Shown one piece after another: positions 32,770 to 54,189 of a stretch of DNA of 64,000 nucleotides. Each line of letters begins with the position of its first letter. The first letter of the stretch is position 1. A program made the translations under genes and the position numbers. Source of the stretch: a virus; IMG/VR virus record IMGVR_UViG_3300025276_000021. One strand, written 5' to 3'. The notes below the pieces were generated by a model, which was given only the letters and a program-made list of their open reading frames with translations, was not told the DNA's origin and ran no database searches.

Positions 32770-32824
32770 CTGTTATCTTTCTTTTTTATCGTCTATATAT
32801 TTTCGTAAGGCCAGTTTGCTTTAA

Positions 32825-35221: not shown

Positions 35222-35224
35222 TCC

Positions 35225-37108: not shown

Positions 37109-37127
37109 TTGCTATCTCTGTTATCTT

Positions 37128-38906
37128 TCATTTGCCGTGTACGTGATTTTTTGAACGCGGAAAAACTCCACCCGATACAGGTCTGTTTGCATAAACCCAG
37201 TTTGCTTTTGAGGGAAAGGCAATATCTTCTGTCGGTCTCTGATTGAACCATCGCAATATTAAATTTTTAGCGCCTTGCAAACTGCTCCGGTCATTAGGAT
37301 CATCTGCGCCAGTGTCGTGCATCAAGTCGGATTCACCATATTCATTTAACCAAACTCTTGCTTCTGCACAAGTCATATTTGGCCAGCTTTCAGCAAGACA
37401 TGCCAACACACCGCAAACTTGAGGTGCTGCCATACTGGTACCGTTCATTTTAGTCATAAAATAACTACTATTTCTTGGATCAGCTCCACCGGCTGAGCCA
37501 TAAGTGTTAGAAGTAACTGAACCCTGAATATGCATACCCGCCGCAAATACATCTACTCTGTTGCCGATATTACTAAACCAACTCTGACCTTCATCTGTAT
37601 CTGTTGACATTGCTCCAACTACAATAGGACTGTTGACTCCTTCACTAAACGGTTGACCACCACCTCTATGAGAATGTAGCGCATATGCAGTTCCACTTAT
37701 AGTAAATGTTGCAGTGTTATTATAATCTTGATCTGTAGAATCCACAATTTTCCAGCTTTGATTATCCGAGGAATTTGTCACAACAATACCAGCTTCTATC
37801 GCATCTTCCAGATCTGCAATACTTGCCGCACTCGAATAAGGTATTCTCAAAGCAGGGCTGCCGCCTGTTCGATGAACGCCATCTGGATAATACTGGGTAG
37901 GTACACCACGCTGGGCAAGACCAAGGGCGGTAAAACCTGTGCCAGACGTAACAGTACCTCTATAGTTCATTGAAGTAATTGGTCCGACATTGCCGGAATC
38001 TATAGAAAAAGCGGAATTGAAACTACAATTAATAACTGTAGGATTTTTTCTGCCAGTTGCAGCATTGATAGGCTTTTGAGTATGCCACACCCTTAAGTAG
38101 TCCCACATAAAAGATGAAATTGAACCAGAACCTGTGGTGGGATTTCCTGCAGTGCCGTCATTGGTAGCAATGCTAAATGGAGAGATATTATAGATATTTG
38201 CGTCTCTGGCCCAGCCTTGTGTATTACCAGCGACTGTAGATCCTACATGACAGCCATGATTGTTATTTGATGTATAAGTGGCAGTTACATAAGAACCGTT
38301 ATCAGAATATGGATATGATGTACCAAAAGAGCCACCAGGATGAGTACCATGATTAAACCAATTCTCTTGTATAACACGACTGCCGCCAGTTCCGTCTGCA
38401 TTTACAGCAAATTCGGGGTGTGCAGGATCAATGTGTCCATCTGCGATAACTACATCAACATTCTTGCCTGAGGCAGTTACCGTCAAATCTGCAGTTATCG
38501 ATCTTGTGTCGCTTGGCTCTCCACCCCAAGTATTAATCTGCGCACCAGAAGCATGTCTTAATAATCCCCAATTTCTATGAGTAGATACATGAGTAACAGC
38601 GAAACCGTTTGCTGCGCTCCAACCTGTCTTATGATAGTTTTGGTTAGTCGTAGCCCATCCGCTAGGTTGTATCGACATTTCGTTAAGTTCTCTTAATGTT
38701 ACATCCCAAACTCGTTCATCTTGTTTCAATGAATCTACTTCGGCATCGTCAAGCATGTAATGAGTATTACGACTTATTTCCCGTCGATGTTCGACACCTA
38801 CAGCTCTATCTGGAATATATAAATTTCCACCCGGCGTTTCCATATCTTCATAAAAAGTTTCCAAATCTTCTTTTCTATAAAGAGTAATTACCCATTCCCT
38901 AGTCAT
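37128..38906 (-). CDS. Subtilisin-like (S8) serine protease
   Basis: VDVVIADG, HGCHVGSTVAG, NGTSMAAPQV triad motifs; oxyanion region is SSDN rather than AAGN. Confidence 0.9.
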   Translation of the reverse strand: MTREWVITLYRKEDLETFYEDMETPGGNLYIPDRAVGVEHRREISRNTHYMLDDAEVDSLKQDERVWDVTLRELNEMSIQPSGWATTNQNYHKTGWSAANGFAVTHVSTHRNWGLLRHASGAQINTWGGEPSDTRSITADLTVTASGKNVDVVIADGHIDPAHPEFAVNADGTGGSRVIQENWFNHGTHPGGSFGTSYPYSDNGSYVTATYTSNNNHGCHVGSTVAGNTQGWARDANIYNISPFSIATNDGTAGNPTTGSGSISSFMWDYLRVWHTQKPINAATGRKNPTVINCSFNSAFSIDSGNVGPITSMNYRGTVTSGTGFTALGLAQRGVPTQYYPDGVHRTGGSPALRIPYSSAASIADLEDAIEAGIVVTNSSDNQSWKIVDSTDQDYNNTATFTISGTAYALHSHRGGGQPFSEGVNSPIVVGAMSTDTDEGQSWFSNIGNRVDVFAAGMHIQGSVTSNTYGSAGGADPRNSSYFMTKMNGTSMAAPQVCGVLACLAESWPNMTCAEARVWLNEYGESDLMHDTGADDPNDRSSLQGAKNLILRWFNQRPTEDIAFPSKANWVYANRPVSGGVFPRSKNHVHGK

Positions 38907-38910
38907 ATCT

Positions 38911-40281
38911 CTACACCTCTAGTGGTAGATATTCTAAATCTACCGTAATAGTATTAGAGCCGCTCGTAGGAAGATTTTTGATTGCCATATAAATTGTTGT
39001 CTGAGAACCTTCGTTCCAAGCAGGTACTGCAGGTGCAAAATTAATATAGCCACTTGCTCCACCAGCACTTGTTGGGTGCAAGATTTCTGCAATAACGCCT
39101 GAATTTGGCGCAGGATCAGTCAACTGTCCTCTAGAAGCATCAGCGGTTCTTGCAGCGCTGGATGTATAAATTCTTAGCCATGAAGTTGCAGATACTTGCG
39201 CCCGCAAGAGCATATATGCTTTAGGTGCACTCGTTATTTCAATGTTTAGGTTGGCACCGCTGGCAATTGAACCTGTTGTAATTGATGAAGTTGTTCTAGT
39301 ACCCCCAGCACCACCACCACCGCCGCCGCCTGCTGCAGAAACAAGCTTAGTTACATTATATGGAGAAACTAAAGTTTCTAATGTACTAGTTCCTGTTGCC
39401 CATACAGATGAATCTTGAATTGTTAATCTGCCGATATTAACTGCGCTATCACCAGCTAAGATTTTTGTTACATTAGTACTATCAAGAATATTTAAATTTG
39501 CGCCGCCAGAATCAATATGCCCTATTTTTGCCCATGCGGATCCAGAATCGCCTACATCATTTCGAATTTGTAAAAGATTTTTTGCATCGTCATACCAGAA
39601 AGTTCCGTTACTAAATGCAAGTGGAGCAGTAGAATCGACATAAATTTTGGGCAAGGTTAAACTCAGAAGTCCTTGTTCGTCTTGCAATTGACTTATATCT
39701 GTTGGTATAGGAACGTTGGTCTTGATCACCCCTGTCAGTTGCGAATATGCAATATTTGTACTGCCGCTTAAAGCACTCCTTGCCAATGAGTCTGTATAAT
39801 ATATGTTTGAAGTACCTTCAGGAACATCGTCAGAGACAAATCCTACTTGTGAATCTGCTAGTTGTCCATTTAAATTTTGAATATGTGGAATACGTGCCTT
39901 GTTGAATACGCCACTAGTCGTTTTATTTGCTGAAAGGTTTGGTATTCTAGCCACAGGAAAAACACCGCTCGTAATAGCAGCGGTTGATAGTGGACCTAAA
40001 TCTGATTGAGAAATTGTATTACAATTAAATTGCCAAGCACCGCTGTTAGAATCATATACAAGTGTTGTATGACTTCCTGTGCCACCTGAAGCAAGAGTTT
40101 GTAATGACCTTATTGTAGATGTAGTCACTTGTGGAGCAATTTCATTTATAGCAGAAACGATATCAGATTTGTTTGTAGTAAGCAATTGATCTGGCTCACC
40201 AACGTATGCGGACATAGAGTTGGTAGCTTGGCGCCAAGTTTCAATAGTATCTGTAAGATTAACTGAGATTTTTCTTGTCAT
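38911..40281 (-). CDS. Short fibre-like virion protein (456 aa), paralogue of the 395-aa protein
   Basis: DTIETWRQATN N-terminus, TSGVFxxARIP repeats, C-terminal WLRIYTSSAARTADASR...PAPNSGVIAEI domain. Confidence 0.7.
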   Translation of the reverse strand: MTRKISVNLTDTIETWRQATNSMSAYVGEPDQLLTTNKSDIVSAINEIAPQVTTSTIRSLQTLASGGTGSHTTLVYDSNSGAWQFNCNTISQSDLGPLSTAAITSGVFPVARIPNLSANKTTSGVFNKARIPHIQNLNGQLADSQVGFVSDDVPEGTSNIYYTDSLARSALSGSTNIAYSQLTGVIKTNVPIPTDISQLQDEQGLLSLTLPKIYVDSTAPLAFSNGTFWYDDAKNLLQIRNDVGDSGSAWAKIGHIDSGGANLNILDSTNVTKILAGDSAVNIGRLTIQDSSVWATGTSTLETLVSPYNVTKLVSAAGGGGGGGAGGTRTTSSITTGSIASGANLNIEITSAPKAYMLLRAQVSATSWLRIYTSSAARTADASRGQLTDPAPNSGVIAEILHPTSAGGASGYINFAPAVPAWNEGSQTTIYMAIKNLPTSGSNTITVDLEYLPLEV

Positions 40282-40312: not shown

Positions 40313-40320
40313 TATTTATA
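40313..40320 (-). promoter_or_regulatory. T4-type late promoter at the downstream edge of the radical SAM cluster
   Basis: TATAAATA overlapping the stop of the last cluster gene, about 30 nt upstream of ATG 40281. Confidence 0.85.
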
Positions 40321-40723
40321 TCTTTTCTAGTGCCATTTTAAACTCGTCCTCATAATATTTTCTCACATCTGGGACCATTCCAGTCATTTTTAGTGGAAAT
40401 GTTATTTGCTTTATAATATTTTCGTATGTCTTTATGTCTAAACTATACTGTACAAAATGGGGATCATTATCAGCTAATAGGTATTTATCATCTAATAACT
40501 CAAAGAAATTTTCATTAAAATCTTCAGATAGCCAAGACGCATAGCAGATCGCAACAAAATACGATTTTGCTGGATATACCCATTCGTCAATGTGTTCATT
40601 AAAATGCTTGACTGCCCATTTAACTGTATCGTCTGTCCAAGTAATATCTACTCTATTCAAATCATCTGTATGATGCTTATTAAGAAGATGATAAACTTGA
40701 CTCGCTATTTTCCAATCTTCCAT
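40316..40723 (-). CDS. Hypothetical protein, last gene of the radical SAM cluster
   Basis: ORF track starts it at 40777; ATG 40723 (MEDWKIA) minimises overlap. Distinctive EWVYPAKSYFVAICYA and NDPHFVQY motifs; family not recognised. Confidence 0.7.
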   Translation of the reverse strand: MEDWKIASQVYHLLNKHHTDDLNRVDITWTDDTVKWAVKHFNEHIDEWVYPAKSYFVAICYASWLSEDFNENFFELLDDKYLLADNDPHFVQYSLDIKTYENIIKQITFPLKMTGMVPDVRKYYEDEFKMALEKI

Positions 40724-41606
40724 ACCAGTCCAATAATCCTTTATATCCGTTACAGCCATTATCCAAATCCTTAACATATCTGTAATGTTCAGTTAAGCAG
40801 TTTCCAAAATATTCGCACGATGTACAGATTGGACTCATAGTTGCCTTTTCTTTTTTTGTCCAATCAATATAGTCTTCCCAACTATCTAACTCAAGAAAAT
40901 ATTCCCTATCTGCCTCATCAAATTCGAGTACACCAAATTTACCGTTTGGAGTAATGTATATATGATCGTCTGAGAATGCATTATATTTTTTATTATATGA
41001 ATCTTCTATTCTATCCCAATTTATAAATTGAAACTTCATATGTTCTTCTAACTCTAACCATTTTATAACAAAGTTCTCAAAATCTTTATGCGTCACAGTA
41101 TGGGCGTTAGCTTGATTGATTGAATATGGTTTAATTTCAACAGATTTTATAGAAGAACATAGATTCAACATATTGATCATTTCCATAACGTCTTTCTTTA
41201 GCACTTTTTCAGTAGCTAAAATTAGTACAGCTATTGGCCTAGTGCTTAACATCATATTTTGAAAAACTAGATCAGCTTTTTCTCTTGCTTCAAAATCATA
41301 AGATACTGCAAGATAAACGTCACTGTCTAAGAAACCTGGGTGCATCATAGAGTAATTTGTGTTGATATAAATAGTACCAGAATAGTGCTTTTTAATAATT
41401 TCTTTAACTCCATAGAAATAAGATTTTTTCATTGCTCCAATTTCGCCACCATATAAATCAATGTGTTCAATGTTCTGTACTTGAGACAACAATTCGTCTA
41501 GTTTATTCAACGAAATCTGTTTCTGGTTACCTAATTCTTCAGGTGTTAGATAGCAAAAGTCGCATCTAAAGTTGCAGAAGTATGTTGGATTTACTGATAC
41601 AATCAT
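40680..41606 (-). CDS. Radical SAM protein with short Cys-rich (twitch/SPASM-like) C-terminus
   Basis: CNFRCDFC, YGGEI, C-terminal CTSCEYFGNCLTEH...GC. Confidence 0.92.
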   Translation of the reverse strand: MIVSVNPTYFCNFRCDFCYLTPEELGNQKQISLNKLDELLSQVQNIEHIDLYGGEIGAMKKSYFYGVKEIIKKHYSGTIYINTNYSMMHPGFLDSDVYLAVSYDFEAREKADLVFQNMMLSTRPIAVLILATEKVLKKDVMEMINMLNLCSSIKSVEIKPYSINQANAHTVTHKDFENFVIKWLELEEHMKFQFINWDRIEDSYNKKYNAFSDDHIYITPNGKFGVLEFDEADREYFLELDSWEDYIDWTKKEKATMSPICTSCEYFGNCLTEHYRYVKDLDNGCNGYKGLLDWYGRLENSESSLSSS

Positions 41607-42229
41607 CGTATGTTAACAAGTTCTATGTCCATAGTAATTGTAAGTCTTTCATCATTACCGAAGTATGGAGTTACCTCATGCCAAACATGGGCAGGTATAA
41701 TTACTATAGAATTTTTTTCTGTTTGTATTTCGTGTTGCGGATTTGTTCTGGCTCGCACTGTATTATTAAAAGAAGGATCGTGCAAAATTAGCTTGCCTCC
41801 ATGCATATCATTATCTACAGAATCTAAGTAAAATACTGCAACCAATGCGTTACCTCTATGACAATGAATTTGTTTATAGTCGCCCCTTTTCATAAACGGC
41901 ATCTTGCCCATAGTTACTTGCATAGCATCATATACTTCCTCAAGTTCAGCACTCGGCTCATATTCTTGGAGAAGTTCTAAGAAAGAGACTGCAAAAAAAT
42001 TATACAGTCTAGTCATAAAAGGATAAGTTTTTAGATTGAAATCTGAGAACACGGGAACATTCTCTAATTCTCCAGCTTCCCTAAAACTTATTTTATTTTC
42101 AGCCATATATTGCATCATAAGAGCCTGACAAAAGGCTTTCAAAGATTCATTTTCATCATCTGTAAAATCTATCTTCGATCTAAATATTTTTGTTGGAAAT
42201 ATAGTTTCAATCATAATATTCTCTTTCAT
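41603..42229 (-). CDS. 2OG-Fe(II) oxygenase-like protein
   Basis: IFPTKIF start, HCH, AVFYL, GGKLILHDP, WHEVTP, RLTI; double-stranded beta-helix oxygenase pattern common in marine phages. Confidence 0.85.
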   Translation of the reverse strand: MKENIMIETIFPTKIFRSKIDFTDDENESLKAFCQALMMQYMAENKISFREAGELENVPVFSDFNLKTYPFMTRLYNFFAVSFLELLQEYEPSAELEEVYDAMQVTMGKMPFMKRGDYKQIHCHRGNALVAVFYLDSVDNDMHGGKLILHDPSFNNTVRARTNPQHEIQTEKNSIVIIPAHVWHEVTPYFGNDERLTITMDIELVNIR

Positions 42230-43244
42230 ATGGACTCACTTTAGCGTCAAGCCTATTTAGAGCAATAATATCGCTTGCCATTGATTTCATGTGTTGACAA
42301 TGATCTTCAACCATGTTATATTCTTTTAAGTCTTTTATAGTTTTTGAACACCCATTACATATCTCAAACATAGGACAAGAAAAACACGCTTTTTTTAAAC
42401 TCATTAAATTTATATCATTCTTTAATGGAGTTGTAAAGCCACCTTTCATTTCATAATCGAAATCAATAGCTTTGTCTAAATCGTCACCAAAAGCGCCACA
42501 AGAGTAGTAGTCACCTTCCGGCTGTATCGTGCGAATATGACTATCACAATCTCTGGCCTGCGGGCAGATCGTTACGCCGCCGCGTAATCGTTTCAACATC
42601 TGTTGAGTGTTATGTTCCCAGTCAGATAATCCAGCTTTCCAAATTTCGATATATCTTTCATAAATCTTAGATAGTCGATATGGCGCTGATTGTGACCCTG
42701 AAGCCATAGCATAATTCACTTTGCAAACTACGTCCATTTTCTTTGCTAATTCTACGGTCTTGACTGCTGTATGTTCGTTTTCTTCAACAATTACTGCAAT
42801 AAATGACGGTCTATATCCAACATGCTCTAACATTGCATCCGAACATTTCCAGAAATCTTCCTCTGTAAACTCACTATAATCGCCTTTAAGTCTACCGCCG
42901 CCATATTGAAAAGATGTTGAAACACCAACTCTACGATGATTAAATAATTCTTTCCATTTCATCGGTTTCATCAAGAACGGATACAAATTAGATGTAAGTG
43001 ATATCGTTGCCGGCATGTCATACTTATCAAGAAATTCTATGATTTTCCAATAGTAGTTAGGACGCATCATAAGAGGATCGCCGCCATTAACAATGATTGT
43101 TTTTGTATCTGGGAATCTATGCAAAAACTTAAAAATCTTATTCAAATCAAGTATAGCCGTATTATCATCTACGGTAATTTTAGATGAAGAACAAAAAGAA
43201 CATTTAAAATTACAAAGTTCTGTTGGCTTGAGGATTAAGTCCAT
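42207..43244 (-). CDS. Radical SAM/SPASM protein
   Basis: KPTELCNFKCSFC, NGGDP, CPQARDC...YYSC...CFSCPMFEICNGC...HC. Confidence 0.95.
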   Translation of the reverse strand: MDLILKPTELCNFKCSFCSSSKITVDDNTAILDLNKIFKFLHRFPDTKTIIVNGGDPLMMRPNYYWKIIEFLDKYDMPATISLTSNLYPFLMKPMKWKELFNHRRVGVSTSFQYGGGRLKGDYSEFTEEDFWKCSDAMLEHVGYRPSFIAVIVEENEHTAVKTVELAKKMDVVCKVNYAMASGSQSAPYRLSKIYERYIEIWKAGLSDWEHNTQQMLKRLRGGVTICPQARDCDSHIRTIQPEGDYYSCGAFGDDLDKAIDFDYEMKGGFTTPLKNDINLMSLKKACFSCPMFEICNGCSKTIKDLKEYNMVEDHCQHMKSMASDIIALNRLDAKVSPYEREYYD

Positions 43245-43777
43245 GGAGAATTTTTAATGTTAAAGCCAAAATTCATAGTAATTCTTTCCACGCAGGGCGC
43301 TCGAAAATGTTCGACCCTATGTTCAAATTTTAAATCTTGACTTGCTAATATAACATCGTATTTTCTTGGCATGTGAAACGCTGTAATTCTTTTGTTTTCT
43401 TCCATATTTCTAAACATGATTTCTCCACCGTTATTAGGGTCCATGTCTGTAAAGTATAATAGAAAAAATACATTAGCTCCTTCTAGTAGATCGTTATGCC
43501 AGTTACAAGAGGACTGCTCGGTGCCATTCCAAATAGAAGAATAGACTATTTTTCTTGCGTTCTCACTGCTATCATATTCTTGCAAGTATGTGTCGTAAAG
43601 TAGATTTGCAGTTTTAATCATTTTCTGTCGCATGCCTTGTAAGTAATAATTCCATGCGACACTAAAAGTTTTTTTGTCGCCATATCTCATATTAAACCAT
43701 TTGAGTTTCGGAATAGTATCCTCAACATGGACAAACATATCTGATCTATTACTTAAAGTATATCCTTCATCTCTCAT
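43235..43777 (-). CDS. 2OG-Fe(II) oxygenase
   Basis: WHND (HxD), LLYF, GGEIMF, EHRV, ERIT: facial triad plus 2OG-binding Arg. Confidence 0.88.
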   Translation of the reverse strand: MRDEGYTLSNRSDMFVHVEDTIPKLKWFNMRYGDKKTFSVAWNYYLQGMRQKMIKTANLLYDTYLQEYDSSENARKIVYSSIWNGTEQSSCNWHNDLLEGANVFFLLYFTDMDPNNGGEIMFRNMEENKRITAFHMPRKYDVILASQDLKFEHRVEHFRAPCVERITMNFGFNIKNSPWT

Positions 43778-44351
43778 TCGCTTCCCTCACCCAGTAATAT
43801 TCGTTTCTCTCAAAACCCATTCGTTTCATTAGTCTGCAATCATAAGGACTATGTGGTATTCTGTAATAGTTCATAGTTGAGTATATATATTCAAGCATTA
43901 GACCCGAAGGACAAATTATTTTTTTGTTGCCTAACAATTTTATTATATCTTGCCACTGTTGCTTCAAAAATTGTTGAGCTTCACTTTTAGATTTTTTATT
44001 CATATAACCTACATTTCCAATTCTACCTATTATCACTTCATTTTTAAAAATATGTGCCATGCATATTGCCTTTTCGAGTTTTTTATCACTATCGCAATGA
44101 GGCATTGTAGGTTCACTTTTTTTAGAAATCATACAATCTTCGTATATCTCAGGATCACTTTCTTTTGTGCCATACCAAATAAAAAAGTGTGCTTGTCTAG
44201 GAGAAATTCTAACCACAAACGGATGCTGTATGGGTAAAATATCTAATTTAACATCAATGTAATTAGGCAGATCAATATCAAGAGATTGCGCTGGCTCTTT
44301 GTAATCGTACATTGTCGATATATCTGTGCGTAATTTTGTAGACACATTCAT
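43767..44351 (-). CDS. Hypothetical protein in the radical SAM cluster
   Basis: Coupled ORF between enzyme genes; true start may be the later MYDYKEP. Ends MKRMGF, weakly reminiscent of GNAT folds. Confidence 0.65.
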   Translation of the reverse strand: MNVSTKLRTDISTMYDYKEPAQSLDIDLPNYIDVKLDILPIQHPFVVRISPRQAHFFIWYGTKESDPEIYEDCMISKKSEPTMPHCDSDKKLEKAICMAHIFKNEVIIGRIGNVGYMNKKSKSEAQQFLKQQWQDIIKLLGNKKIICPSGLMLEYIYSTMNYYRIPHSPYDCRLMKRMGFERNEYYWVREANER

Positions 44352-45333
44352 CTAAAACTTCCTCTGCGTGTTTATAGTCATGCGACATAAAACAGCCTAG
44401 AGTACATCTTTGAAAATACTCACATGTAGAACAGTTATATTTTTCTACAAATGCCTTTTCTATAGGAGTATTATCCATAGGTTGTATATCTGTTTTATAC
44501 ATTGCTTTATCATCAGGCTCTTGAACTAAGTTTCCACATAGACACATAGTTCCATCTTCCAACACAAGTTTTGATGATCTGCAACTAATGCAGTTTTTTT
44601 CATTTTCAATCCAAGAACGAATAGGATCAATTTTAGGGTAGTTATCTATAAAGTGTTTGAATATATTCAGCATGTCTTGGTCTGATGGTGCGCTTCTTTT
44701 CGCTTGACAATCTGGCATATAATAGTCTGCGTATAGATAAATGCCATCGTCATATAGTTGACGTAAAACTCCCTCTGTCTCTTTTAACCAAAATTTTATA
44801 TTCGGCCTAGTGAGCAAAATACCAATACCATCTAACTCATCTTTAAAGTATTTGATATTTTCTAAGAATATTGCTAAATTCGGTTTATTGAATCTGCCAG
44901 CAGGGTCGTATGAAGTAACAAGTTTACTTTTTATGCCATGAGAACGACAATATGAAAGCAAATCATTAATTTGGTCTCTTTTACTTACCACTAAATTAGT
45001 GACCCAATTAATTCTTGTTTTTTTATTATATTTTTTTCCTAATTCTCCAATACCTTTGGCGAGATCCTTATAATCAGAGAATAGAGATGAATTGAATATC
45101 TCATCTGCAAAAATTTCTCCACCCATGATATTAAATACAACATTGATTCTATTTTCAGTTTTTAGAAAATCTTCTATGGGAACAAGTTTATCTAATACAG
45201 TATCAATTCCTACAATGTTATCGTGATTTTGCCAGCAGAATGGACAAGATAGATTGCAAAATTCGAATAGATGTATAGTGTATTCTTGCTGAGAGTCTCG
45301 CTTATCTCTTAATATAAAGTCACTCAGTTCCAT
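44278..45333 (-). CDS. Radical SAM/SPASM-like protein
   Basis: CNLSCPFC, MGGEI, CISC...CLC...CSTCEYFQRCTLGC...EC. Confidence 0.93.
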   Translation of the reverse strand: MELSDFILRDKRDSQQEYTIHLFEFCNLSCPFCWQNHDNIVGIDTVLDKLVPIEDFLKTENRINVVFNIMGGEIFADEIFNSSLFSDYKDLAKGIGELGKKYNKKTRINWVTNLVVSKRDQINDLLSYCRSHGIKSKLVTSYDPAGRFNKPNLAIFLENIKYFKDELDGIGILLTRPNIKFWLKETEGVLRQLYDDGIYLYADYYMPDCQAKRSAPSDQDMLNIFKHFIDNYPKIDPIRSWIENEKNCISCRSSKLVLEDGTMCLCGNLVQEPDDKAMYKTDIQPMDNTPIEKAFVEKYNCSTCEYFQRCTLGCFMSHDYKHAEEVLDECVYKITHRYIDNVRLQRASAIS

Positions 45334-45994
45334 TTAATGTGTCCGCTGAAATACCCCAAGTTAGTATGAACATGGGATTGTTTTCGTGCGCCCAGAAACT
45401 ATACATGCCTTTTCCTCCAAACATATAGTCGTTAAAGTATTTTGAATAATATTTTAGATTATCAGTTTCTACAGAATTGTAATAGTAAAAAAATCTTTTG
45501 TTTTTGAGGAGACTGACGAAATTTATCCCTTTAATATCATCTGTAGGATCTTCAGGGTGATCAGTAACAAATTTTTTCAAGTCATCGTCCTGTATGATAT
45601 ACATATTATATAAAGTTAGAGAATCTAGTTTAGACGTAAAATTTTTCAATTCTTCCCGATGATCTTCAATAAACTTTGCAATACAAGGATAACATTGATC
45701 GACAATAACTGGAAGCTTTTTGTATATCAATAAAATGTCAATTAATACATTTTCCAAAACATCTATATTTAATATCTGAGTAAATTTCAAATAGTGAGAT
45801 GCCAATTCAAATAAATCGCTTTCTCCTATTTTAATATCGCAAGGTATTTCTAAATTGCTAAGGTATACAAGTAAACTTTCGCCTTGCAATTTTGAATTTT
45901 CGTAGTCAATTAAAAATTTAGTTTCCTTGTCTGTAAAATATTTTTTTAAATCTTCAATACCCAAAGGGGCTGTTACCATAATAATTTCGCTCAT
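45320..45994 (-). CDS. Hypothetical protein in the radical SAM cluster
   Basis: ORF track starts it at 46063; ATG 45994 (MSEIIMVTAP) follows an AGGAG site and avoids overlap. Family not recognised. Confidence 0.75.
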   Translation of the reverse strand: MSEIIMVTAPLGIEDLKKYFTDKETKFLIDYENSKLQGESLLVYLSNLEIPCDIKIGESDLFELASHYLKFTQILNIDVLENVLIDILLIYKKLPVIVDQCYPCIAKFIEDHREELKNFTSKLDSLTLYNMYIIQDDDLKKFVTDHPEDPTDDIKGINFVSLLKNKRFFYYYNSVETDNLKYYSKYFNDYMFGGKGMYSFWAHENNPMFILTWGISADTLNGTE

Positions 45995-46001
45995 AATATA
46001 A

Positions 46002-46829
46002 TTATCTCCTACCTCTTGCCGAGTGACATGACGAGTGGCATGATGAATGACACACACTCTCACTAATGCTTATTCCACTTCCTAAATTAGCTACACTAAA
46101 CCATGCATCATAAAAATTCTGAAAAAGTTCTTCTAATTTTTCGTCTGTCAGTAAATCGTTTTGTGCAATTGGATTTGCAACATCAGAAGAATCGATTTCA
46201 AAACCATATTTATGATGTAAGATTGCAAAACCACTTGCTGTGACTGATGTATTTACACGCGCCGCACGGCGTAATTCTGTACTATATTTAATAGTTGCAA
46301 TAGCGCAGTAATGTTGCAAAAATTCATGTGTTAAAGGAGAACCATCATCATCCACTGTTGGACCATATACGTTATGAGTAACTTTAAATGCTTCCCTAGC
46401 CACATCTGAGATAAAAACAACATCGCCTGTTCTTGCGCTGTTTGCGTCTGTAGTACATGCTATTTGCCAATCGCAAGCAAAATTTCTATTTAATAGTGCG
46501 GCTGCGGTCGCTGCTGGGCTTTTCGCTGGAAGAGAGATATTGCCGCCAGGGCCTTGAACAATTCTTGTAAAATTGATTTTTCTAACCCGTGTATATTGAT
46601 TAACATCTTTCAGTAAAGCATTATAGATATCTTGAGCAGTTATTGGAGAATCTTTCAGATCTGGTATAGATGTTATTCCGGTAGTCGTACTACCATACAA
46701 GGATGGCAATAAGGTAGGTGCAGGTGATGTATTTTCTCCGTAGACGATATGATTATTTATTCTGTCTGTAACAAATTCTTTATATTTTGTTAGTGTCGGA
46801 TTTTCTGTTGCTGGGTTACTGATTGCCAT
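46002..46829 (-). CDS. Putative substrate/precursor protein with C-terminal (CHSS)n-RGRR tail
   Basis: AGGAG site; ends SVCHSSCHSSCHSARGRR; sits among radical SAM genes. The ORF is solid, the role is inferred. Confidence 0.7.
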   Translation of the reverse strand: MAISNPATENPTLTKYKEFVTDRINNHIVYGENTSPAPTLLPSLYGSTTTGITSIPDLKDSPITAQDIYNALLKDVNQYTRVRKINFTRIVQGPGGNISLPAKSPAATAAALLNRNFACDWQIACTTDANSARTGDVVFISDVAREAFKVTHNVYGPTVDDDGSPLTHEFLQHYCAIATIKYSTELRRAARVNTSVTASGFAILHHKYGFEIDSSDVANPIAQNDLLTDEKLEELFQNFYDAWFSVANLGSGISISESVCHSSCHSSCHSARGRR

Positions 46830-46838
46830 TGTTATCTC

Positions 46839-47882
46839 CTAGACATTTTTTGCCAATTCCATCATTAAGCTCTTAGGAGCTCCACAAATATCTTTTTCCC
46901 ATCCTAGCTGATGGCAATCGCCGCCACAAAATTTCGAAACTGGACAGGAATAGCATAATGGATTTCTCATCTTTTCTTCAATAATATTTCGTATTCTCTT
47001 AGGACTATTTATAAGAGTTTGTATGCTATCATCTAAGTTACCGAATTGAAATTCTGGCGCACTGTTCGGACAACCACTAATTGTTCCATCACCATTTATA
47101 GTGAATAATTTTTCTTCACAATCACGACAAAACGTGCCGCATTTTGTCTGAGTCTTTTCAAACTTAGAATACACATTTTCAAGAAAATCGTTGTCAAACC
47201 AATCTCTCGCACCATACTTTTCACTCTGCATATGCATTTTTAAAAAGTAGGCATCAAGTTCTTTGTTAGATGGAAATATCTCTGATGCATTTCTAGCATT
47301 GCCATTATTCGTAAGACGTTCTAAAGATACCTCTTGAACACCTAATCTACGGCACCATCTTAGCAATGTAATGGGATCTTTTTCAAGAGTATCTTTAGTC
47401 AAACTAATAAACAAACGTATAGTAATACCTTGACTTAATAATGTCTTGACATTTTTGTGCCATAAGCTATATTGTTTATTATTATCGAAACGAATTTTAC
47501 GATCCCAAGACGTGCCAAGTCTACTATTCAGAGGACCTTTGATAAAATCAATATGCTGATCTTTTAATTTGAATACTAGATTAGTTGTTGCACCCCAACT
47601 CATACGATCCCAGAGACCATCACATGCATCATACACTTTACGCATTTGACCTACAGGTACAAGAAAAGGTTCACCTCCGTGAAACTCCATGTGTATGCTA
47701 TCGTATGTCGCATCTCTTGGTCTATGAGATGCAAGGTGTGCTTCTTTTCTAAATCTATGAATCCAATCAATTATCTTATTTGGATTCCAATAGATTTTTG
47801 CACCATTACTACCGCTTGTAAAGCAGTGGGCACAATTCAGTTGACAGGTTTCTGTTGTTTTTAGGTACATTAACCAATTCAT
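46839..47882 (-). CDS. Radical SAM/SPASM protein
   Basis: KTTETCQLNCAHC, FHGGEP, CGTFCRDC...GC...CYSCPVSKFCGGDC...C. Confidence 0.95.
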   Translation of the reverse strand: MNWLMYLKTTETCQLNCAHCFTSGSNGAKIYWNPNKIIDWIHRFRKEAHLASHRPRDATYDSIHMEFHGGEPFLVPVGQMRKVYDACDGLWDRMSWGATTNLVFKLKDQHIDFIKGPLNSRLGTSWDRKIRFDNNKQYSLWHKNVKTLLSQGITIRLFISLTKDTLEKDPITLLRWCRRLGVQEVSLERLTNNGNARNASEIFPSNKELDAYFLKMHMQSEKYGARDWFDNDFLENVYSKFEKTQTKCGTFCRDCEEKLFTINGDGTISGCPNSAPEFQFGNLDDSIQTLINSPKRIRNIIEEKMRNPLCYSCPVSKFCGGDCHQLGWEKDICGAPKSLMMELAKNV

Positions 47883-48355
47883 ATTATGTTTTCTATATAA
47901 TCTTCAAGAGAAAAACTGAGAGTCAGGGCTTCACTATTATTAAATGCTTGGTGAAGAGTTCCTGAAGGAATATGAAAATACTCTCCTGAATTTATATCAT
48001 GCATAATACCATTCATTTCAATAGTTTTAGTTCCCTCACAACAGTAAATAATAACATCAAAAGGATCTGTATGAGGCTTAAAAGAAGGAGATCCTTTTTT
48101 GGCGTAAAATAAATGACATGTTACTGGACCTTCTGTATGATTATATTTTTTAGCAAGAGCAAGACATTCCTCATTCATAGTCCGACTGAAATTTTCCATT
48201 CGTTCTATTTTTATAGTATTATTTGAATTTTTTAGAACTTCACTAAAGTTGTGTGCTTTGTGTTCTTTGCCATCAAAATCAACAAAAAATACAGCATTTT
48301 GGTCATATAAAAGTGAATTTTGTAATATAGATAAAACAGTAGTTAAAGTAAACAT
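47879..48355 (-). CDS. JmjC/cupin-type oxygenase (YcfD/ROX-like core)
   Basis: SFKPHTD..DV...EGTKT...GEYFHIPSGTLHQA...LSF matches the HxD...H JmjC pattern. Confidence 0.8.
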   Translation of the reverse strand: MFTLTTVLSILQNSLLYDQNAVFFVDFDGKEHKAHNFSEVLKNSNNTIKIERMENFSRTMNEECLALAKKYNHTEGPVTCHLFYAKKGSPSFKPHTDPFDVIIYCCEGTKTIEMNGIMHDINSGEYFHIPSGTLHQAFNNSEALTLSFSLEDYIENII

Positions 48356-48486: not shown

Positions 48487-49674
48487 TTAAAGTTTCAATA
48501 CACATTCTACAAGCTTTTCTTCAATAGAAGTATTTGTTTCTAAAGCAACTCCTACAATAGCAGCGCCATCATACTCTTTAGATGCACAACCATTATTGTG
48601 AGCATACAAAGTTTCACCTTTACTTACAGCACCAACAACTCTTACTGGAACACGACCTTTTAGCGCAAGAGCCTGACCTTCTGTATCTGCATTCATAAGA
48701 AATGCGGGTTTTAATGATATCACTCCTATAGGCAATCCAAATACATTACACTCATCAGTTTCAGCCTCATCAGTCACAGACACTTTCATAACCGTGCCAA
48801 CAGGATATTCTATATCAGTTGTATATTTTTCTGCGAGGTCAGCGAAGTTTGCAGACGTAGCTAAACCGTAAAATGTGTGAGCATATACGCCCTTAAGTTT
48901 AGCACCTGTTGAACCAATATCGTATAGATTATCGTTAGCTGATTGAATAGTCATATCAGCATTTATTTCCATACTATCATTTAAGCTAACAGGTCCGTTG
49001 AAAATAACTGTACCCGTGTTTGTAAAAGTGTTAGTGTTGCTCATTGTTCTAGATGCTGTTACATTAGCGGCTACATTTGACCTTTCAAAAACAGAAGGAA
49101 TAACATCAGCAGGAATGTCTGTACCATCATCTGTTATCATGCTAGAAGGAATATTGGGTATTCTATCGATTAAAAATATTCCTGATGTTATCTTACTAGT
49201 TGCAAGTGATGGTATTCTATCCTCGTGAAATTGTCCCATTGTAGTTTGGTTAGCATTTAAGTATGGTAATCTAGCTATAGCTATAGTTCCTGTAGTAATG
49301 TTAGACGCATCAAAATTAGGAAGTAAAGCAGGATTAAAAGTACCGGTTGTAATTTTACCTGCATCTAATGCAGGAATATCGCCCTGAGTCAGCGCCCTTC
49401 TTACAAAAGTAAAGACGCCTGTTGCTGCAGAATAACTTAGTTCGCAATACGTGCCGCCGCCAGATGTTGTCGCACTTAATTGATTTTTAGCAAGTTGAAG
49501 CGTAGATCCGCCAATATTAGTTTTAGTTTCTATAGAATTTATAGCACTAACTATACTTGAACTATCCGCTGTAGTAAGTGCGTCCAAATCTCCAATATAT
49601 GTTCCTAAAAGATTCGTCTTTTCTCGCCAACCGTTAACTGTGCTTGAGAGGTCTACATTTACAATTCTGGGCAT
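48487..49674 (-). CDS. Fibre-like protein with C-terminal autocleaving-chaperone-like domain (395 aa)
   Basis: STVNGWREKTN N-terminus, five DAxKITxGxFxxxR(I/L)P repeats, ADLAEKY...IGVIS..PAFLMN...LALKGRVPVRV tail resembling peptidase G2-type chaperones. Confidence 0.75.
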   Translation of the reverse strand: MPRIVNVDLSSTVNGWREKTNLLGTYIGDLDALTTADSSSIVSAINSIETKTNIGGSTLQLAKNQLSATTSGGGTYCELSYSAATGVFTFVRRALTQGDIPALDAGKITTGTFNPALLPNFDASNITTGTIAIARLPYLNANQTTMGQFHEDRIPSLATSKITSGIFLIDRIPNIPSSMITDDGTDIPADVIPSVFERSNVAANVTASRTMSNTNTFTNTGTVIFNGPVSLNDSMEINADMTIQSANDNLYDIGSTGAKLKGVYAHTFYGLATSANFADLAEKYTTDIEYPVGTVMKVSVTDEAETDECNVFGLPIGVISLKPAFLMNADTEGQALALKGRVPVRVVGAVSKGETLYAHNNGCASKEYDGAAIVGVALETNTSIEEKLVECVLKL

Positions 49675-49884: not shown

Positions 49885-52800
49885 TTAATCTCCCAAACTT
49901 ATTGCTCTAAAGTCTCTTATCATAGGCACTTTAGATGAGTTGGAAGAAGTGAATACAATTTTTACTTTAAATCTATTAAACGTAGGTAATGTTCCCGTAT
50001 CGCCACCTTCTGTGTAAATATACTCCCGGAAAGTTTCTCCATCATCATCCGAAGGCATTGCAATATCTAATGTTGCTTGTACCCAAGGCACAGAGTCAAA
50101 ACTAACGCTATCCATGATTGCTTTATAATAAAGCTCAACATTAGCAGCCGAGGGTTTATTAACTGCCATAAATATTTTTAATCCTGTCGCAGGAGATAGA
50201 AGCGAAATAGATTTTGTTATGTGTTTCGCTAAAGATGATCCTGAAAGGGCATCTGTATCTGCTTTGTATGTAGAATATCCTTCATTACCAGCTACTGTAT
50301 CGTCTACATCAAATACAACATTATTTGTCCCAGATGTAGATGAAGTAACTGGCTCAGGATTATCGATTATATTTTCAAATATCGATACGCAACATCTTTG
50401 AAGATCGATAACAGGAGAAACAAAATTCGAACCCGATACAATATTGCCATGTACTAAAAGAGACGTATCATTAACTAATTGATCTTCCCTAGTCGCATGT
50501 GCTATAATTCTAGGAAATTCAAAGTAATTATTTGCTTTGTTTCTTAATGGCTCTACTGCGTAATGTGCATATGGGCTTTCTGATCCTGCATAAGATTTAC
50601 CGCTAGTTCCTATCTGAGTGAAGTTTATAGAAGTATTTTTAGGACTTATGCTTTCAAGATTTGGGAACATGGAATTATATGCATATTGTTGCGTAATTTG
50701 AATTGCATTGCCGCCAGTTGTCAGCGGAACAGTTACTACTGGCAAACTGGATTGATTAAATGCAAAAGAATGACCATCAACTTCAGTTACGGTGTGTGCT
50801 GTTCCACCGTTGTTCAAGAATGTTGCGTATGTTGCATCTACAACACCTGAAAGAACTACGCTGTCTCCTACTATAAGTCCGTGGTTTTTAGCTTCAACTT
50901 TAACATTTTTTCTAGCAGTTGGTTTGGCAAATAGTGTGATCGCGTTGGGCTTTAAAAGTCTATTAGGAACAGTAGCATTTTTAAACACTGCTTTGCCAGT
51001 CGTGCTTGTAAACGATGCTCTATGCAATTTAAATTTCATATCTTGCCACTGAGATGCTTCCCATGTCTTACTATTTTGAGATTTAAATAGTGATCCTAAG
51101 AATGGCTGTTTGTTGATCTTTTTATTTGTAGTTCCAAGAACAAATTTACCTACACTAGAAACATATAATAAGTAATCTGTATTATCAGTAAGGCAAACTA
51201 CGGCGTAGTCTGTGTAGCCCTTCAAATAAATAGGCTCATCGAATATAAAATCTGTTGCTAATGTAGCGTCAAGGCTTGTAGCGACTTGAGCAGACGTTAA
51301 TAGTTTCTGAGAACCGGGTACAATAATATCTGAAGCAGGATAACCGTTAACCATAGGTCTAATCTGAATCCAAACTGGCATAGTAGTACTTTTCGTTTTA
51401 AAATATAAAGAAACTTTTGTAATAAACGCTCCAGTCGATTCGTGGACAGTAAAGGACTGTGCTAAAGGATCATTGTTTTCATTACGATCTTCATTGCCTT
51501 GATTGTCTTGTCGCTCGAATGTGGTTCTACCAGTTATAACTCTAGATGTATTTGTAGATGTTCTTCCTACTACTTCCAACCAACGAGTTGACAAAATATC
51601 TTCCTGTCTTGTATCAAGAACCCCAGACGCACTATATACCGCGGAGCCGTAAGAAATTGCATTTTCTTCATTATCTGCCGTGATATCTATTAATTTAAAC
51701 TCTGCAGAACCAGTTGGAAATCTTATAGCTGAAGTGCTAGGAACAAAGAAGGATCCTTGAACTATGCCATTGCCGTCAGTGTACAAATCGCTTTTACCAT
51801 TGGGATGACCGTTTGCGTTAAGCTGTGTGTTTCCAAATTCAGTACCCTTATGCGAATTATAAGATACATATGTTTCTCTTTTAACCCAATCTGCAACATC
51901 AACACCATCAAAAAATGCAAACATTTTTGTATTTGGCTGAAAACCTTCTCCCCTAAAATAAACTAATCTAGAACGCATAAACGGAATAAATGCCCATTGA
52001 ACTAACCTATCACCGATAACCTCGCGAATAGTTTCGCTTGATACAACAGTATTTACCGTAGTTTGAGTTGTTCTATTAACACCACTTGTGATTGTCCCAC
52101 CTGTTCTACGGGTACCCGTCGTGTTTGTAAAACCACTCTCACTAAGAACTATAGACCTGCTGTTCGTTGATGATCCTACGTCTAGTCCGTTTAGATCAGA
52201 GCCAGACCAATTCCATTCATTTTCGTTCCACAAATGTGCAGCGTTTGTATTTAACCTTGTGCCACCATCAATAACTTTTTGTCCGAGGTATTCAACTTCT
52301 TTCCAATCATCACTGGAGGGAGAAAGTTTGATATGACCTCGAAAGCCCATAACCATAAAGGGATTAACATTTTCCGTGTCTGAGGCTAAATCTTGACCTA
52401 TGTAATCTGCGTGTGTATATGCAAGATAAACATTATCTCCTACTAAAACAGTATTTGTAGATAGTGCTTGGTCATAAATTAGACCTATATTATTTGATGA
52501 ATATGAAGGACGGGCAAATTTCTCTTTAGGATCTATAGATGCATTATATTCAATATTATTAAAATCTGTATATGATTGGTCTGCAAAATTATCTGCAATA
52601 AAACCTGTCTTTGTTCTAGGCAATCCATTTTCATCAAGAACTTCAATATTTTTTGTGTCCATCTCTAACAAAGATAGTGTTACCATTTCCTCAAAACGCT
52701 CAAGACGATTTTCTATTTTACCGATATCACGCATAGTATATCGTTTGTTTTCTATCATACTAAATGTCAAATCTTTAGAGTTTAAAGTATATGGGTTTAC

Positions 52801-54189
52801 TTTTACTCTATATAATTCCATCGCAGTTTGCGGAATATCAGGAAATACTGGAGAAAATGCTGGGGTGCCTTCAATGTATTTCATTTGACCATCTTGTTCC
52901 AATACTAACTTATCGAATCTAGGCAGATAATATTCAACGTCAAATGTGAGTACTGACGCTTGTTTTGGAATTGGAATTGGAACAGCAGAATTATTAGAAA
53001 AGTTTCCTGTTGTGCCTTTTGACGGTCTTAAATCAATACAATCTTTTAAATCAACAACATCGCCGTTTTCCATAGTATATGTGGGAATATCGCCATAGTC
53101 GTATGTTAATCCTGAGCCTGAAGAATAAGAGTTAGGCGCATAATAATCTCCTTGTCCATGCTCATAATATGTGAAATTTACCCAAATTGTTGTCGTGCTT
53201 AATGCATGATTATTTTTCAATCTAAGTTTAGAAGTTTCATAATATGCATCTTTTGCGCCATTGTCAAGAACAAATTTATCCGTGATGATCTCGCCAGCAG
53301 AGTTATTATATCTTATCTCTGATATATTAACAACATCTAATTCTAACATATCAGTCACAACGTCTTGTTGCCCAGCAGTCCAAGCGACTGTATAACTTCT
53401 ATTTCCTGTTTGCAATGTTTTAGACGCAAGACTTGCGACTGCCTTATATGTGTATGCTATAATAGTTACTTCTTGGTCAAAAGTTTCAGCAGTAAAACCA
53501 GTTACAGTTGCGGAATTAGAGTTTAAACTACCTGAAGTAACAGTTATAGATTGAACTGTACCTGCAGCATTTACAGCTATCCAGTCACTAATATCTACAA
53601 AAACTTCGCCTGTGCCGGCAGCTATCGTTGCTTGCACTGCACCCGCAGTGATTGTTGTTGTATATCTCTTTTGTTGATATAAAGAAAAATTAGATACTGA
53701 TTTAGCTCTAGGTTTGGGTAAAGGAAAAATCAAACTTTTATTATTGGAATTGTGTATTACTGATCTAGCGTTTTCTCTAAAGATGTTTACATATTTGTCC
53801 AGCGCACCAACTGTAGCGCCAATACTAAATGCTGATACATCAAATTTATAACTTCCTGTCATTTCCACATCAAATATATACAATCTGTATGCAACGCCTG
53901 CAATATTATTTTCTTTCTCAATCGCTCTAACTCGGCAAGTTCCCACAGTAGCGCCAGTCCAATTGACGGCGTTTTTAATTGTAAGTGGCGCCATTAAAGA
54001 AATATCAGGAATGCCCAACAAGTCAGAGACTAGAATATAGTTGCCGTATCCTGTACCTACAGTTTCGTTAATAACTGCTTCGGTTGCAGTTGCTTTACTT
54101 ACTGACAAGAATGTTGGTAAATTTTTTGAAATCTTATATCCATTTACATATGCTTTACCGGGGGATACCCTCAGTTTGATATTTGCCAT
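49885..54189 (-). CDS. Large baseplate/virion structural protein, DUF4815-like, C-terminal part
   Basis: PGKAYVNGY, YYLPRFDK, NKRYTMRDIGKIENR, KTGFIADNF, ENVNPF, DPLAQSF, GSLFKSQN..TW..Q..DMKF motifs. Confidence 0.8.
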   Translation of the reverse strand: MANIKLRVSPGKAYVNGYKISKNLPTFLSVSKATATEAVINETVGTGYGNYILVSDLLGIPDISLMAPLTIKNAVNWTGATVGTCRVRAIEKENNIAGVAYRLYIFDVEMTGSYKFDVSAFSIGATVGALDKYVNIFRENARSVIHNSNNKSLIFPLPKPRAKSVSNFSLYQQKRYTTTITAGAVQATIAAGTGEVFVDISDWIAVNAAGTVQSITVTSGSLNSNSATVTGFTAETFDQEVTIIAYTYKAVASLASKTLQTGNRSYTVAWTAGQQDVVTDMLELDVVNISEIRYNNSAGEIITDKFVLDNGAKDAYYETSKLRLKNNHALSTTTIWVNFTYYEHGQGDYYAPNSYSSGSGLTYDYGDIPTYTMENGDVVDLKDCIDLRPSKGTTGNFSNNSAVPIPIPKQASVLTFDVEYYLPRFDKLVLEQDGQMKYIEGTPAFSPVFPDIPQTAMELYRVKVNPYTLNSKDLTFSMIENKRYTMRDIGKIENRLERFEEMVTLSLLEMDTKNIEVLDENGLPRTKTGFIADNFADQSYTDFNNIEYNASIDPKEKFARPSYSSNNIGLIYDQALSTNTVLVGDNVYLAYTHADYIGQDLASDTENVNPFMVMGFRGHIKLSPSSDDWKEVEYLGQKVIDGGTRLNTNAAHLWNENEWNWSGSDLNGLDVGSSTNSRSIVLSESGFTNTTGTRRTGGTITSGVNRTTQTTVNTVVSSETIREVIGDRLVQWAFIPFMRSRLVYFRGEGFQPNTKMFAFFDGVDVADWVKRETYVSYNSHKGTEFGNTQLNANGHPNGKSDLYTDGNGIVQGSFFVPSTSAIRFPTGSAEFKLIDITADNEENAISYGSAVYSASGVLDTRQEDILSTRWLEVVGRTSTNTSRVITGRTTFERQDNQGNEDRNENNDPLAQSFTVHESTGAFITKVSLYFKTKSTTMPVWIQIRPMVNGYPASDIIVPGSQKLLTSAQVATSLDATLATDFIFDEPIYLKGYTDYAVVCLTDNTDYLLYVSSVGKFVLGTTNKKINKQPFLGSLFKSQNSKTWEASQWQDMKFKLHRASFTSTTGKAVFKNATVPNRLLKPNAITLFAKPTARKNVKVEAKNHGLIVGDSVVLSGVVDATYATFLNNGGTAHTVTEVDGHSFAFNQSSLPVVTVPLTTGGNAIQITQQYAYNSMFPNLESISPKNTSINFTQIGTSGKSYAGSESPYAHYAVEPLRNKANNYFEFPRIIAHATREDQLVNDTSLLVHGNIVSGSNFVSPVIDLQRCCVSIFENIIDNPEPVTSSTSGTNNVVFDVDDTVAGNEGYSTYKADTDALSGSSLAKHITKSISLLSPATGLKIFMAVNKPSAANVELYYKAIMDSVSFDSVPWVQATLDIAMPSDDDGETFREYIYTEGGDTGTLPTFNRFKVKIVFTSSNSSKVPMIRDFRAISLGD

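Follow-up and report, generated by a model that had tools for sequence, protein, structure and literature searches.

A conserved Cys-His-Ser tail on a phage protein encoded among radical SAM enzymes, a candidate site of whole-protein modification

Small secreted peptides and a few cellular proteins, namely sulfatases, quinohemoprotein amine dehydrogenase and HxsA, are known to be matured by radical S-adenosylmethionine (rSAM) enzymes; to our knowledge, such maturation has not been described for the building blocks of virus particles. Sulfatases present the motif C-x-[P/A]-x-R to their maturase, while triceptides carry a carbon-carbon link from the ring of an aromatic residue or histidine to the C-beta of the residue at position +2. 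In the HXS antiphage system, the 214-residue protein HxsA with its five His-x-Ser repeats is encoded together with HxsD and is matured by two enzymes of the rSAM class, HxsB and HxsC; a change of +8 Da in HxsA was mapped to an SHRSS motif (Li et al. 2026, PMC13128918). Here we analyze a gene for a 275-residue protein with a Cys-His-rich C-terminal tail, which lies among rSAM genes in a 64,000-nucleotide stretch of viral DNA (IMG/VR record IMGVR_UViG_3300025276_000021, in the following called the window). We think it somewhat more probable than its denial that this is a virion protein of the baseplate/fibre module and that its tail is modified by the neighboring rSAM and oxygenase enzymes.

The gene is located on the minus strand at 46002-46829, including the TAA stop codon at 46002-46004, and is the orthologue of gp170 of phage Atu_ph07. 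The last 16 residues (46005-46052) read CHSS-CHSS-CHSA-RGRR, preceded by ...SESV, such that the protein ends in VCHSSCHSSCHSARGRR. Their codons are TGT CAT TCA TCA, TGC CAC TCG TCA and TGT CAC TCG GCA for the three units and AGA GGT AGG AGA for the terminal Arg-rich element (46052-46005), in exact agreement with a preceding sequence-only reading that had singled out this open reading frame (ORF). A six-frame scan of the window found CH..CH at one further place, in a frame without coding appearance, and R[GS]RR followed by a stop codon nowhere but in the tail gene. The tail pattern is far beyond chance and highly non-random. Read as a His-Xaa-Ser pattern, the three units give H261-S-S, H265-S-S and H269-S-A, and family members have S, N or A at the third position.

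A word-indexed homologue search revealed 35 homologues of 172-292 residues, all 35 of which end in [V/I/L/Y]-CH-x-S-CH-x-[S/N]-CH-x-x-R-[G/S]-RR. In an alignment of 36 homologues the invariant columns are limited to C260, H261, C264, H265, C268, H269, R272, R274 and R275; R83 and S263 are nearly invariant, and identity to the window protein drops to 19-35% in the body. The window protein contains a lineage-specific insertion of about 80 residues, and the core shared by the family comprises about 190 residues. A profile search over 1.84 billion cluster representatives (clustered at 50% identity) matched 846 clusters at E<=1e-3, 579 at E<=1e-10 and 135 at E<=1e-30. Among the best-scoring 150 listed, 132 of 148 new representatives show the strict end CH..CH..CH..R.RR, while the other 16 are one-residue variants, truncations or rare alternatives, e.g., four units followed by a Gly-rich end. 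Some natural variants could inform which tail positions matter: P0175 and P0186 have four CH-x-S units and then a Gly/Asp/Pro-rich end in place of R-x-R-R, and P0090 and P0153 read CHSNH-x-NTCH with the loss of one Cys.

At the DNA level, 75 distinct tail sequences encode Ser by both AGY and TCN codons and Arg by both AGR and CGN codons. Since synonymous codons vary to this extent, selection acts on the tail at the level of the peptide. The sequence-only reading had proposed just this from the differing codons of the three units, and its further expectation of a tail conserved among homologues is borne out by the nine invariant Cys, His and Arg columns. Replication slippage as the origin of the repeats is ruled out by the codon variety. 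The same reading had cautioned that the RGRR codons also supply the ribosome-binding site of the next gene. This overlap is real in the window, where the next gene starts with ATG at 45994, 7 nucleotides past the stop codon of the tail gene, and the last two Arg codons (AGGAGA) are located 11 nucleotides upstream of this ATG. Yet it fails to account for the conserved RGRR, because the orthologues in the cultured phages RSL2, Atu_ph07 and pPa_SNUABM_DT01 (DT01) encode RGRR or RSRR in CGN codons and have their own, separate GGAG after the stop codon. Thus, the overlap is incidental rather than the cause of conservation.

Judged from these sequences, the family is defined by its tail, large, and essentially restricted to phages. 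A check of 185,579 prokaryotic species genomes found it on just three contigs, all three of which also carry the enzyme cassette described below. These contigs (L090, L091 and L092) are labelled Gemella, Bdellovibrionaceae and Rhodobacteraceae, respectively, and may represent binned phage contigs or prophages; on the Gemella-labelled contig the tail protein ends in ...CHSSCHSNCHHR. Neither Pfam nor NCBIfam contains a family for the tail protein, and no curated precursor family of ribosomally synthesized, post-translationally modified peptides (RiPPs) matched it. The C-terminal part, residues 237-275, matches positions 147-186 of the 186 positions of phrog_35144, a family of unknown function (E 3.9e-7). 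Searches of the INPHARED phages by tblastn with the 275-residue protein, with P0018 and with a short tandem variant gave no match, to which the low-complexity filter possibly contributed and the bodies are also highly divergent; megablast with 10 kb around the tail gene gave none either. Orthologues in cultured phages were traced only via the neighboring rSAM gene. Family members are annotated as hypothetical throughout, and full-text literature searches for the motif, CXXX repeats, phage RiPPs, SPASM and triceptides found no description of the tail protein.

Direct evidence on the location of such a protein comes from Atu_ph07, whose gp170 was reported as a virion protein of 31.89 kDa, detected by 8 unique peptides at 35% coverage (Attai et al. 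2018, PMC6102473, Supplementary Table S5). The mass we computed for the translated orthologue equals the published value exactly. In that study gp170 was found in gel fragments 1-9 with its peak in fragment 1, while proteins of 29-35 kDa mostly peak in fragments 7-8 and whatever else peaks in fragment 1 is either of 75-139 kDa or represented by just one or two peptides (PMC6102473). The enzymes of the cassette and the downstream protein (gp165, gp168, gp169, gp171 and gp172) are absent from the virion list (PMC6102473). Atu_ph07 gp170 thus belongs to the particle and migrates at a mass much larger than its own; for the phage of the window, presence in the virion is suggested by orthology. The published recipe of the loading buffer for Atu_ph07 contains no reducing agent (PMC6102473).

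The position of gp170 at the top of a gel loaded in such a buffer would also suit an alternative in which the tail remains unmodified and forms a metal-binding (Zn, Fe, Cu) or inter-chain disulfide module that locks the protein into the baseplate or fibre, with the rSAM enzymes and oxygenases acting elsewhere. Alternating Cys and His residues with small spacers are typical of metal sites, three of each are present per chain and would be multiplied in an oligomer, and in 20 of 37 members the tail holds all Cys residues of the protein. His-lined metal sites stabilize other phage fibres and spikes. A module of this kind leaves unexplained, however, why the tail is attached to rSAM/SPASM enzymes in two architectures and in unrelated phage lineages, as well as the near-invariant Ser or Asn at the fourth position of the unit and the terminal R-x-R-R. 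Furthermore, the body is modeled as an alpha/beta fold and not as a trimeric beta-helix. We regard this alternative as serious but rather unlikely.

The fold of the body was taken from an AlphaFold2 (AF2) model with a mean predicted local distance difference test (pLDDT) of 77, in which the last strand (residues 253-260) runs straight into the tail. The model supports the view of the sequence-only reading that a folded body takes the place of a short leader. Comparison of this model with the PDB revealed nothing convincing by Foldseek (best E 0.34), and the best match by VIA-align (Z 5.4) was confined to a helical hairpin within the lineage-specific insertion. A profile search of PDB sequences found nothing below E 0.2, and the ESM Atlas held no usable match for the tail protein. 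The fold search of BFVD returned family members only, Atu_ph07 gp170 among them.

Immediately upstream of the tail gene, at 46839-47882 on the minus strand, lies the gene of the 347-residue enzyme rSAM_A. The SPASM criterion combines CxxxCxxC with CX9-15GX4C...CX2CX5CX3C...C, and rSAM_A shows both: the cluster motif C13/C17/C20 and the series C255-x10-G266-x4-C271, C310-x2-C313-x5-C319-x3-C323 and C333 are invariant in 36 sequences. C252 is an eighth invariant Cys beyond the complete seven-Cys SPASM set. The SPASM family TIGR04085 is passed with 35.5 bits at a cut-off of 27. From these motifs, the assignment of rSAM_A to the rSAM/SPASM class is clear. With a mean column identity of 62%, the enzyme is far better kept than the body of the tail protein. 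Since the cluster motif starts at residue 13, there is no room for an N-terminal RiPP recognition element (RRE).

The AF2 model of rSAM_A (pLDDT 88) finds its best fold match in the PDB in the anaerobic sulfatase-maturing enzyme (anSME) anSMEcpe (4K37), which is of equal length (template modeling score 0.73-0.75, E 5e-12). ChlB, CteB (5WHY), SkfB, SuiB and TigE rank lower, the first four with almost the same score; a phmmer search of rSAM_A against the PDB was empty. This best match raises the option that rSAM_A oxidizes C268, within C-H-x-[S/A]-R, to formylglycine, a reactive aldehyde that could serve cross-linking or catalysis. The spacing of +4 between Cys and Arg and the Ser or Ala at +3 do resemble the sulfatase motif, and the anaerobic sulfatase maturase family TIGR03942 is the best full-length likeness in NCBIfam (E 2e-10), yet it is hit with 40.1 bits against a cut-off of 349.45. 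The last unit reads C-H-[G/S/T/N]-[S/A]-R, such that the +4 Arg is invariant whereas position +1 is always His and +2 differs from the Pro or Ala of the sulfatase motif. The other two invariant CH units would be left without a role, and near-equal folds are offered by the four enzymes ranked next. Taken together, we consider formylglycine formation quite improbable.

A second candidate modifier precedes rSAM_A. The first gene of the cassette (47879-48355, minus strand) overlaps rSAM_A by 4 nucleotides and encodes a 158-residue cupin/JmjC_2-like protein, a putative Fe(II) oxygenase. It scores 34.8 bits with Cupin_2 and 31.9 bits with JmjC_2 (PF08007) for the whole protein at a cut-off of 22, with no single stretch passing; its 158 residues correspond to the beta-helix core only. 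The iron triad H95-T-D97...H135 is present.

The linkage of these genes recurs widely. Among 80 IMG/VR loci compared, 48 have the cupin, rSAM_A, the tail gene and the gene of the phrog_20767 protein in this order; taken singly, rSAM_A is the gene immediately preceding the tail gene in 59, the cupin is syntenic in 52, and the phrog_20767 protein follows the tail gene in 60. Homologues of the rSAM enzymes of the window are recognizable in 64 loci. Metagenome contigs with tail proteins of only 25-35% identity retain the same order of a cupin, an rSAM enzyme of about 346 residues, the tail gene, a gene for about 215-240 residues and further rSAM genes. In cultured jumbo phages, rSAM_A orthologues of 40-49% identity occur in Atu_ph07, Phosso, the RSL2/RSF1/FLC/S13 group and DT01, and the hosts of the jumbo phages with the family are Ralstonia, Burkholderia, Agrobacterium, Sinorhizobium and Pseudomonas. 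In RSL2, Atu_ph07 and DT01, the gene following rSAM_A encodes a "hypothetical protein" that ends in ...CHSSCHTSCHGSRGRR, ...CHSSCHASCHNSRSRR or ...CHTSCHTSCHSARGRR. The cassette behaves as a mobile and almost entirely viral module, since the same order recurs in divergent contigs, in cultured jumbo phages, and on just three prokaryotic contigs.

Earlier studies have encountered these cassettes from the side of the enzymes. Radical SAM cassettes were described in the host recognition cluster of pelagimyophages, with the enzymes as accessory genes (PMC7029224), and cupin, rSAM and 2-oxoglutarate (2OG) oxygenase genes are listed as accessory in RSL2-like jumbo phages (PMC8066314, PMC11898562). 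They agree with the cassette of the window in both gene content and location, which is among fibres downstream of VrlC/DUF4815. The Cys-His-tailed protein is missing from all three papers, and none puts forward a target for the enzymes.

The remaining 16 of the 80 loci (L064 at 3683-4455, L072, L084 and 13 others) represent a second architecture, in which the same tail is borne by a different body of 126-140 residues encoded directly behind a fibre gene. In 15 of these 16 loci the short tail genes form a tandem pair, and the short tandem variant of L064 also matches phrog_35144. They are followed by a protein of about 400 residues with invariant GCxxxCxxCF and a C-terminal CxxCxxxxxC and, in 14 of 16 loci, by a further protein of about 320-350 residues with CxxxCxxC near the N-terminus and CxxCxxxxxC near the C-terminus. 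Pfam and profile-profile comparison of these enzymes gave nothing beyond the Cys motifs. We call the enzyme of about 400 residues a probable rSAM protein at the level of the motif only, because its profile-profile alignment with rSAM_A covered just the cluster motif.

The number of rSAM paralogues varies widely between phages, with four in the window and more in DT01, and thus suggests more than one target. At the locus of Pseudomonas phage DT01 (L009), at least seven annotated rSAM genes stand in a row behind the tail gene, near a central spike gene. Under this aspect, the tailed protein might assist the enzymes, e.g., by donating Fe-S clusters or metal, as a scaffold, or as an adaptor that guides the rSAM enzymes to their true substrates, for which the fibres are an example, or its tail might be released as a small RiPP with the body as an outsized leader. 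That the C-terminal peptide was never reported in proteomics would fit. On the other hand, the orthologue is well supported in particles and the enzymes are not, the poor conservation of the body would be unusual for a scaffold that handles cofactors, and no protease or exporter recurs in the cassette according to family scans of the window and the comparison of the 80 loci. We find this explanation very improbable.

The interpretation that we favor can be outlined as follows. The tail protein would be a structural particle protein of the baseplate/tail-fibre module of a marine T4-like myovirus, with a body that varies between phages and a tail of three C-H-small-S/N units plus R-x-R-R that protrudes from the last beta-strand. 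This tail may serve as docking and modification site for the co-inherited enzymes. The first candidate modifier is rSAM_A; since it lacks a peptide-recognition domain, it would address the tail directly on the whole protein. Further candidates are the JmjC-like cupin, the other rSAM enzymes and the 2OG oxygenases. The enzymes would work in the infected cell and remain there, while the modified protein enters the virion. As the likeliest outcome, the His/Ser/Cys units would receive one or more radical-installed covalent links. Among these, a cyclophane from His to a C-beta, of the kind found in triceptides or HxsA, or a Cys thioether seem most likely; formylglycine at the last Cys is less favored. 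The links could make the tail more rigid or cross-link it into a highly stable assembly of high mass.

A modified full-length protein had already been proposed by the sequence-only reading. This proposal gains from the orthologue in virions, the adjacent anSME-like enzyme without RRE, and the linkage to rSAM/SPASM enzymes and a cupin, whereas the modification itself is what we infer. More tentatively, and with somewhat less than even confidence, we suggest that very different lineages of myoviruses share a mobile kit, in which rSAM enzymes and iron oxygenases rewrite the Cys-His-Ser tail of a particle protein in contact with the host and thereby give rise to a covalent cross-link or a cofactor-like center in the virion.

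Several points weigh against modification of the tail by these enzymes. The case for it is drawn entirely from genomic context. No curated maturase family gives rSAM_A a score anywhere near its cut-off, such that none of their chemistries can be assigned to it. Since the rSAM paralogues vary in number and do not correspond to the three units, part of the enzymes may have other targets, e.g., the flanking fibres. The enzymes of the second architecture are recognizable by motif alone. In the AF2 model, tail residues 266-275 have pLDDT values below 50. Finally, in view of the buffer recipe without reductant, the migration of gp170 at the top of the gel equally fits disulfides or an oligomer stable in sodium dodecyl sulfate (SDS).

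In the window, which has a G+C content of 37%, the cassette forms a tight run of eleven genes on the minus strand, most of which overlap (gaps of -98 to +9 nucleotides). The cupin, rSAM_A and the tail gene are followed by the gene of the 224-residue phrog_20767 protein (45320-45994), assigned by its phrog match and by synteny; for this protein, the ESM Atlas yielded weak leads only and the search of PDB sequences was empty. Next are the paralogue rSAM_B with 351 residues (44278-45333), placed by family matches and synteny, and a 194-residue protein of unknown function (43767-44351) that recurs after rSAM_B in the locus comparison. A 180-residue protein resembling 2OG-Fe(II) oxygenases (43235-43777; PF13640, E 4.5e-5, below the cut-off) is followed by the 345-residue rSAM/SPASM paralogue rSAM_C (42207-43244), recognized by family matches, and by a 208-residue 2OG-Fe(II) oxygenase (41603-42229) matching 2OG-FeII_Oxy_5. 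The run ends with the 308-residue paralogue rSAM_D (40680-41606), again recognized by family matches, and a 153-residue protein matching phrog_20737 (40316-40777).

On the same strand, the cassette is flanked upstream by a tail-fibre-like protein (48487-49674; phrog_19602 and phrog_22593) and downstream by a fibre-like protein (38911-40281; ORF and phrog comparison). It lies downstream of a giant protein of the VrlC/DUF4815 type, baseplate wedge proteins and a hub/lysozyme protein. Because of the fibre flanks and the baseplate genes upstream, we assign it to the baseplate/host-recognition region of a T4-like marine myovirus.

Some features of the surrounding region are recorded here in their own right, all on the minus strand. 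The giant baseplate protein of the VrlC/DUF4815 type (49885-55142) is apparently split into two ORFs sharing base 54189, one of 317 residues corresponding to positions 10-318 of phrog_358 and one of 1434 residues corresponding to positions 581-1603. In related contigs, one protein of about 1770 residues takes the place of the two, and the split in the window may be genuine, a frameshift or a sequencing error. At 31543-38906, fibre genes are interspersed with two protease-like genes in alternation; one ORF there (37128-38906, 592 residues) has matches in phrog_9158 and in a protease phrog. Farther downstream of the fibres, the structural region contains a single ORF of 5142 residues (14158-29586), followed by ORFs of 1851 and 905 residues.

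If our interpretation is true, the tail protein would be the first structural protein of a virus that is matured by an rSAM enzyme and the phage-side counterpart of the bacterial HXS defence effector. A modified tail would explain why ocean phages carry radical SAM cassettes, so far puzzling, in their host-recognition regions. Furthermore, it would add a new chemistry to phage assembly or to contact with the host and offer a compact tag of 16 residues with its enzyme for protein engineering. The size of the family adds to its significance, as does its occurrence both in marine T4-like phages, which are abundant, and in jumbo phages that can be cultivated. Since cultured hosts and phages exist, the question is directly testable.

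Comparison with described systems places the locus near several of them. Triceptides and other RiPPs with three-residue cyclophanes (XyeB, GrrM, FxsB, YhhB), the ranthipeptides of PapB and CteB, CXXX-repeat peptides and peptides with Cys at every fifth position share with the tail short repeats that contain aromatic residues or His or Cys, small spacers and an adjacent rSAM/SPASM enzyme. They differ in that the phage tail has neither a leader-core peptide nor an RRE, and the product would stay on a structural protein of 170-290 residues. Such a folded body, together with an rSAM_A without N-terminal extension and an orthologue retained in virions, sets the protein apart from classical RiPP precursors. 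The family scores agree with this: the XyeB, GrrM, FxsB and YhhB maturase families reach 17-29 bits at best (cut-offs 310-450), the ranthipeptide/SCIFF family of PapB (NF047865) reaches 37.7 bits (cut-off 340), and the CXXX-repeat maturase TIGR04115 matches the N-terminal part only with 27.7 bits (cut-off 350), where the phage counterpart of the repeats would be three units on a protein.

Closer likeness is found to enzymes that act on whole proteins. The anSMEs (PDB 4K36-4K39) are, like rSAM_A, rSAM enzymes of about 350-370 residues with a full SPASM domain and no RRE, and act on a Cys motif of a whole protein. The target motif of the phage system is a different one, with three repeated units, and the presumed substrate is a virion protein rather than a hydrolase. 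With HXS, the phage system shares a full-length folded protein with tandem His-x-Ser units, which in HXS depends on adjacent rSAM enzymes; the same pattern is found in the phage tail. Here, in contrast, the protein is phage-encoded and, by its orthologue, bound to the virion; its units are of four residues with an invariant Cys, are exactly three in number, and stand at the extreme C-terminus, followed by R-x-R-R. Moreover, a cupin and 2OG oxygenases are added in the phage cassette. HxsB (TIGR03978) and HxsC (TIGR03977) models gave 29.9 bits (cut-off 370) and 29.5 bits (cut-off 267.9), respectively, the latter on a different paralogue, and among the cassette proteins no match to the HxsA or HxsD models was found at E<=0.01. 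By analogy, the phage system, though a member of none of these groups, would thus resemble HXS, anSME and QhpD in the maturation of a whole protein by an rSAM enzyme.

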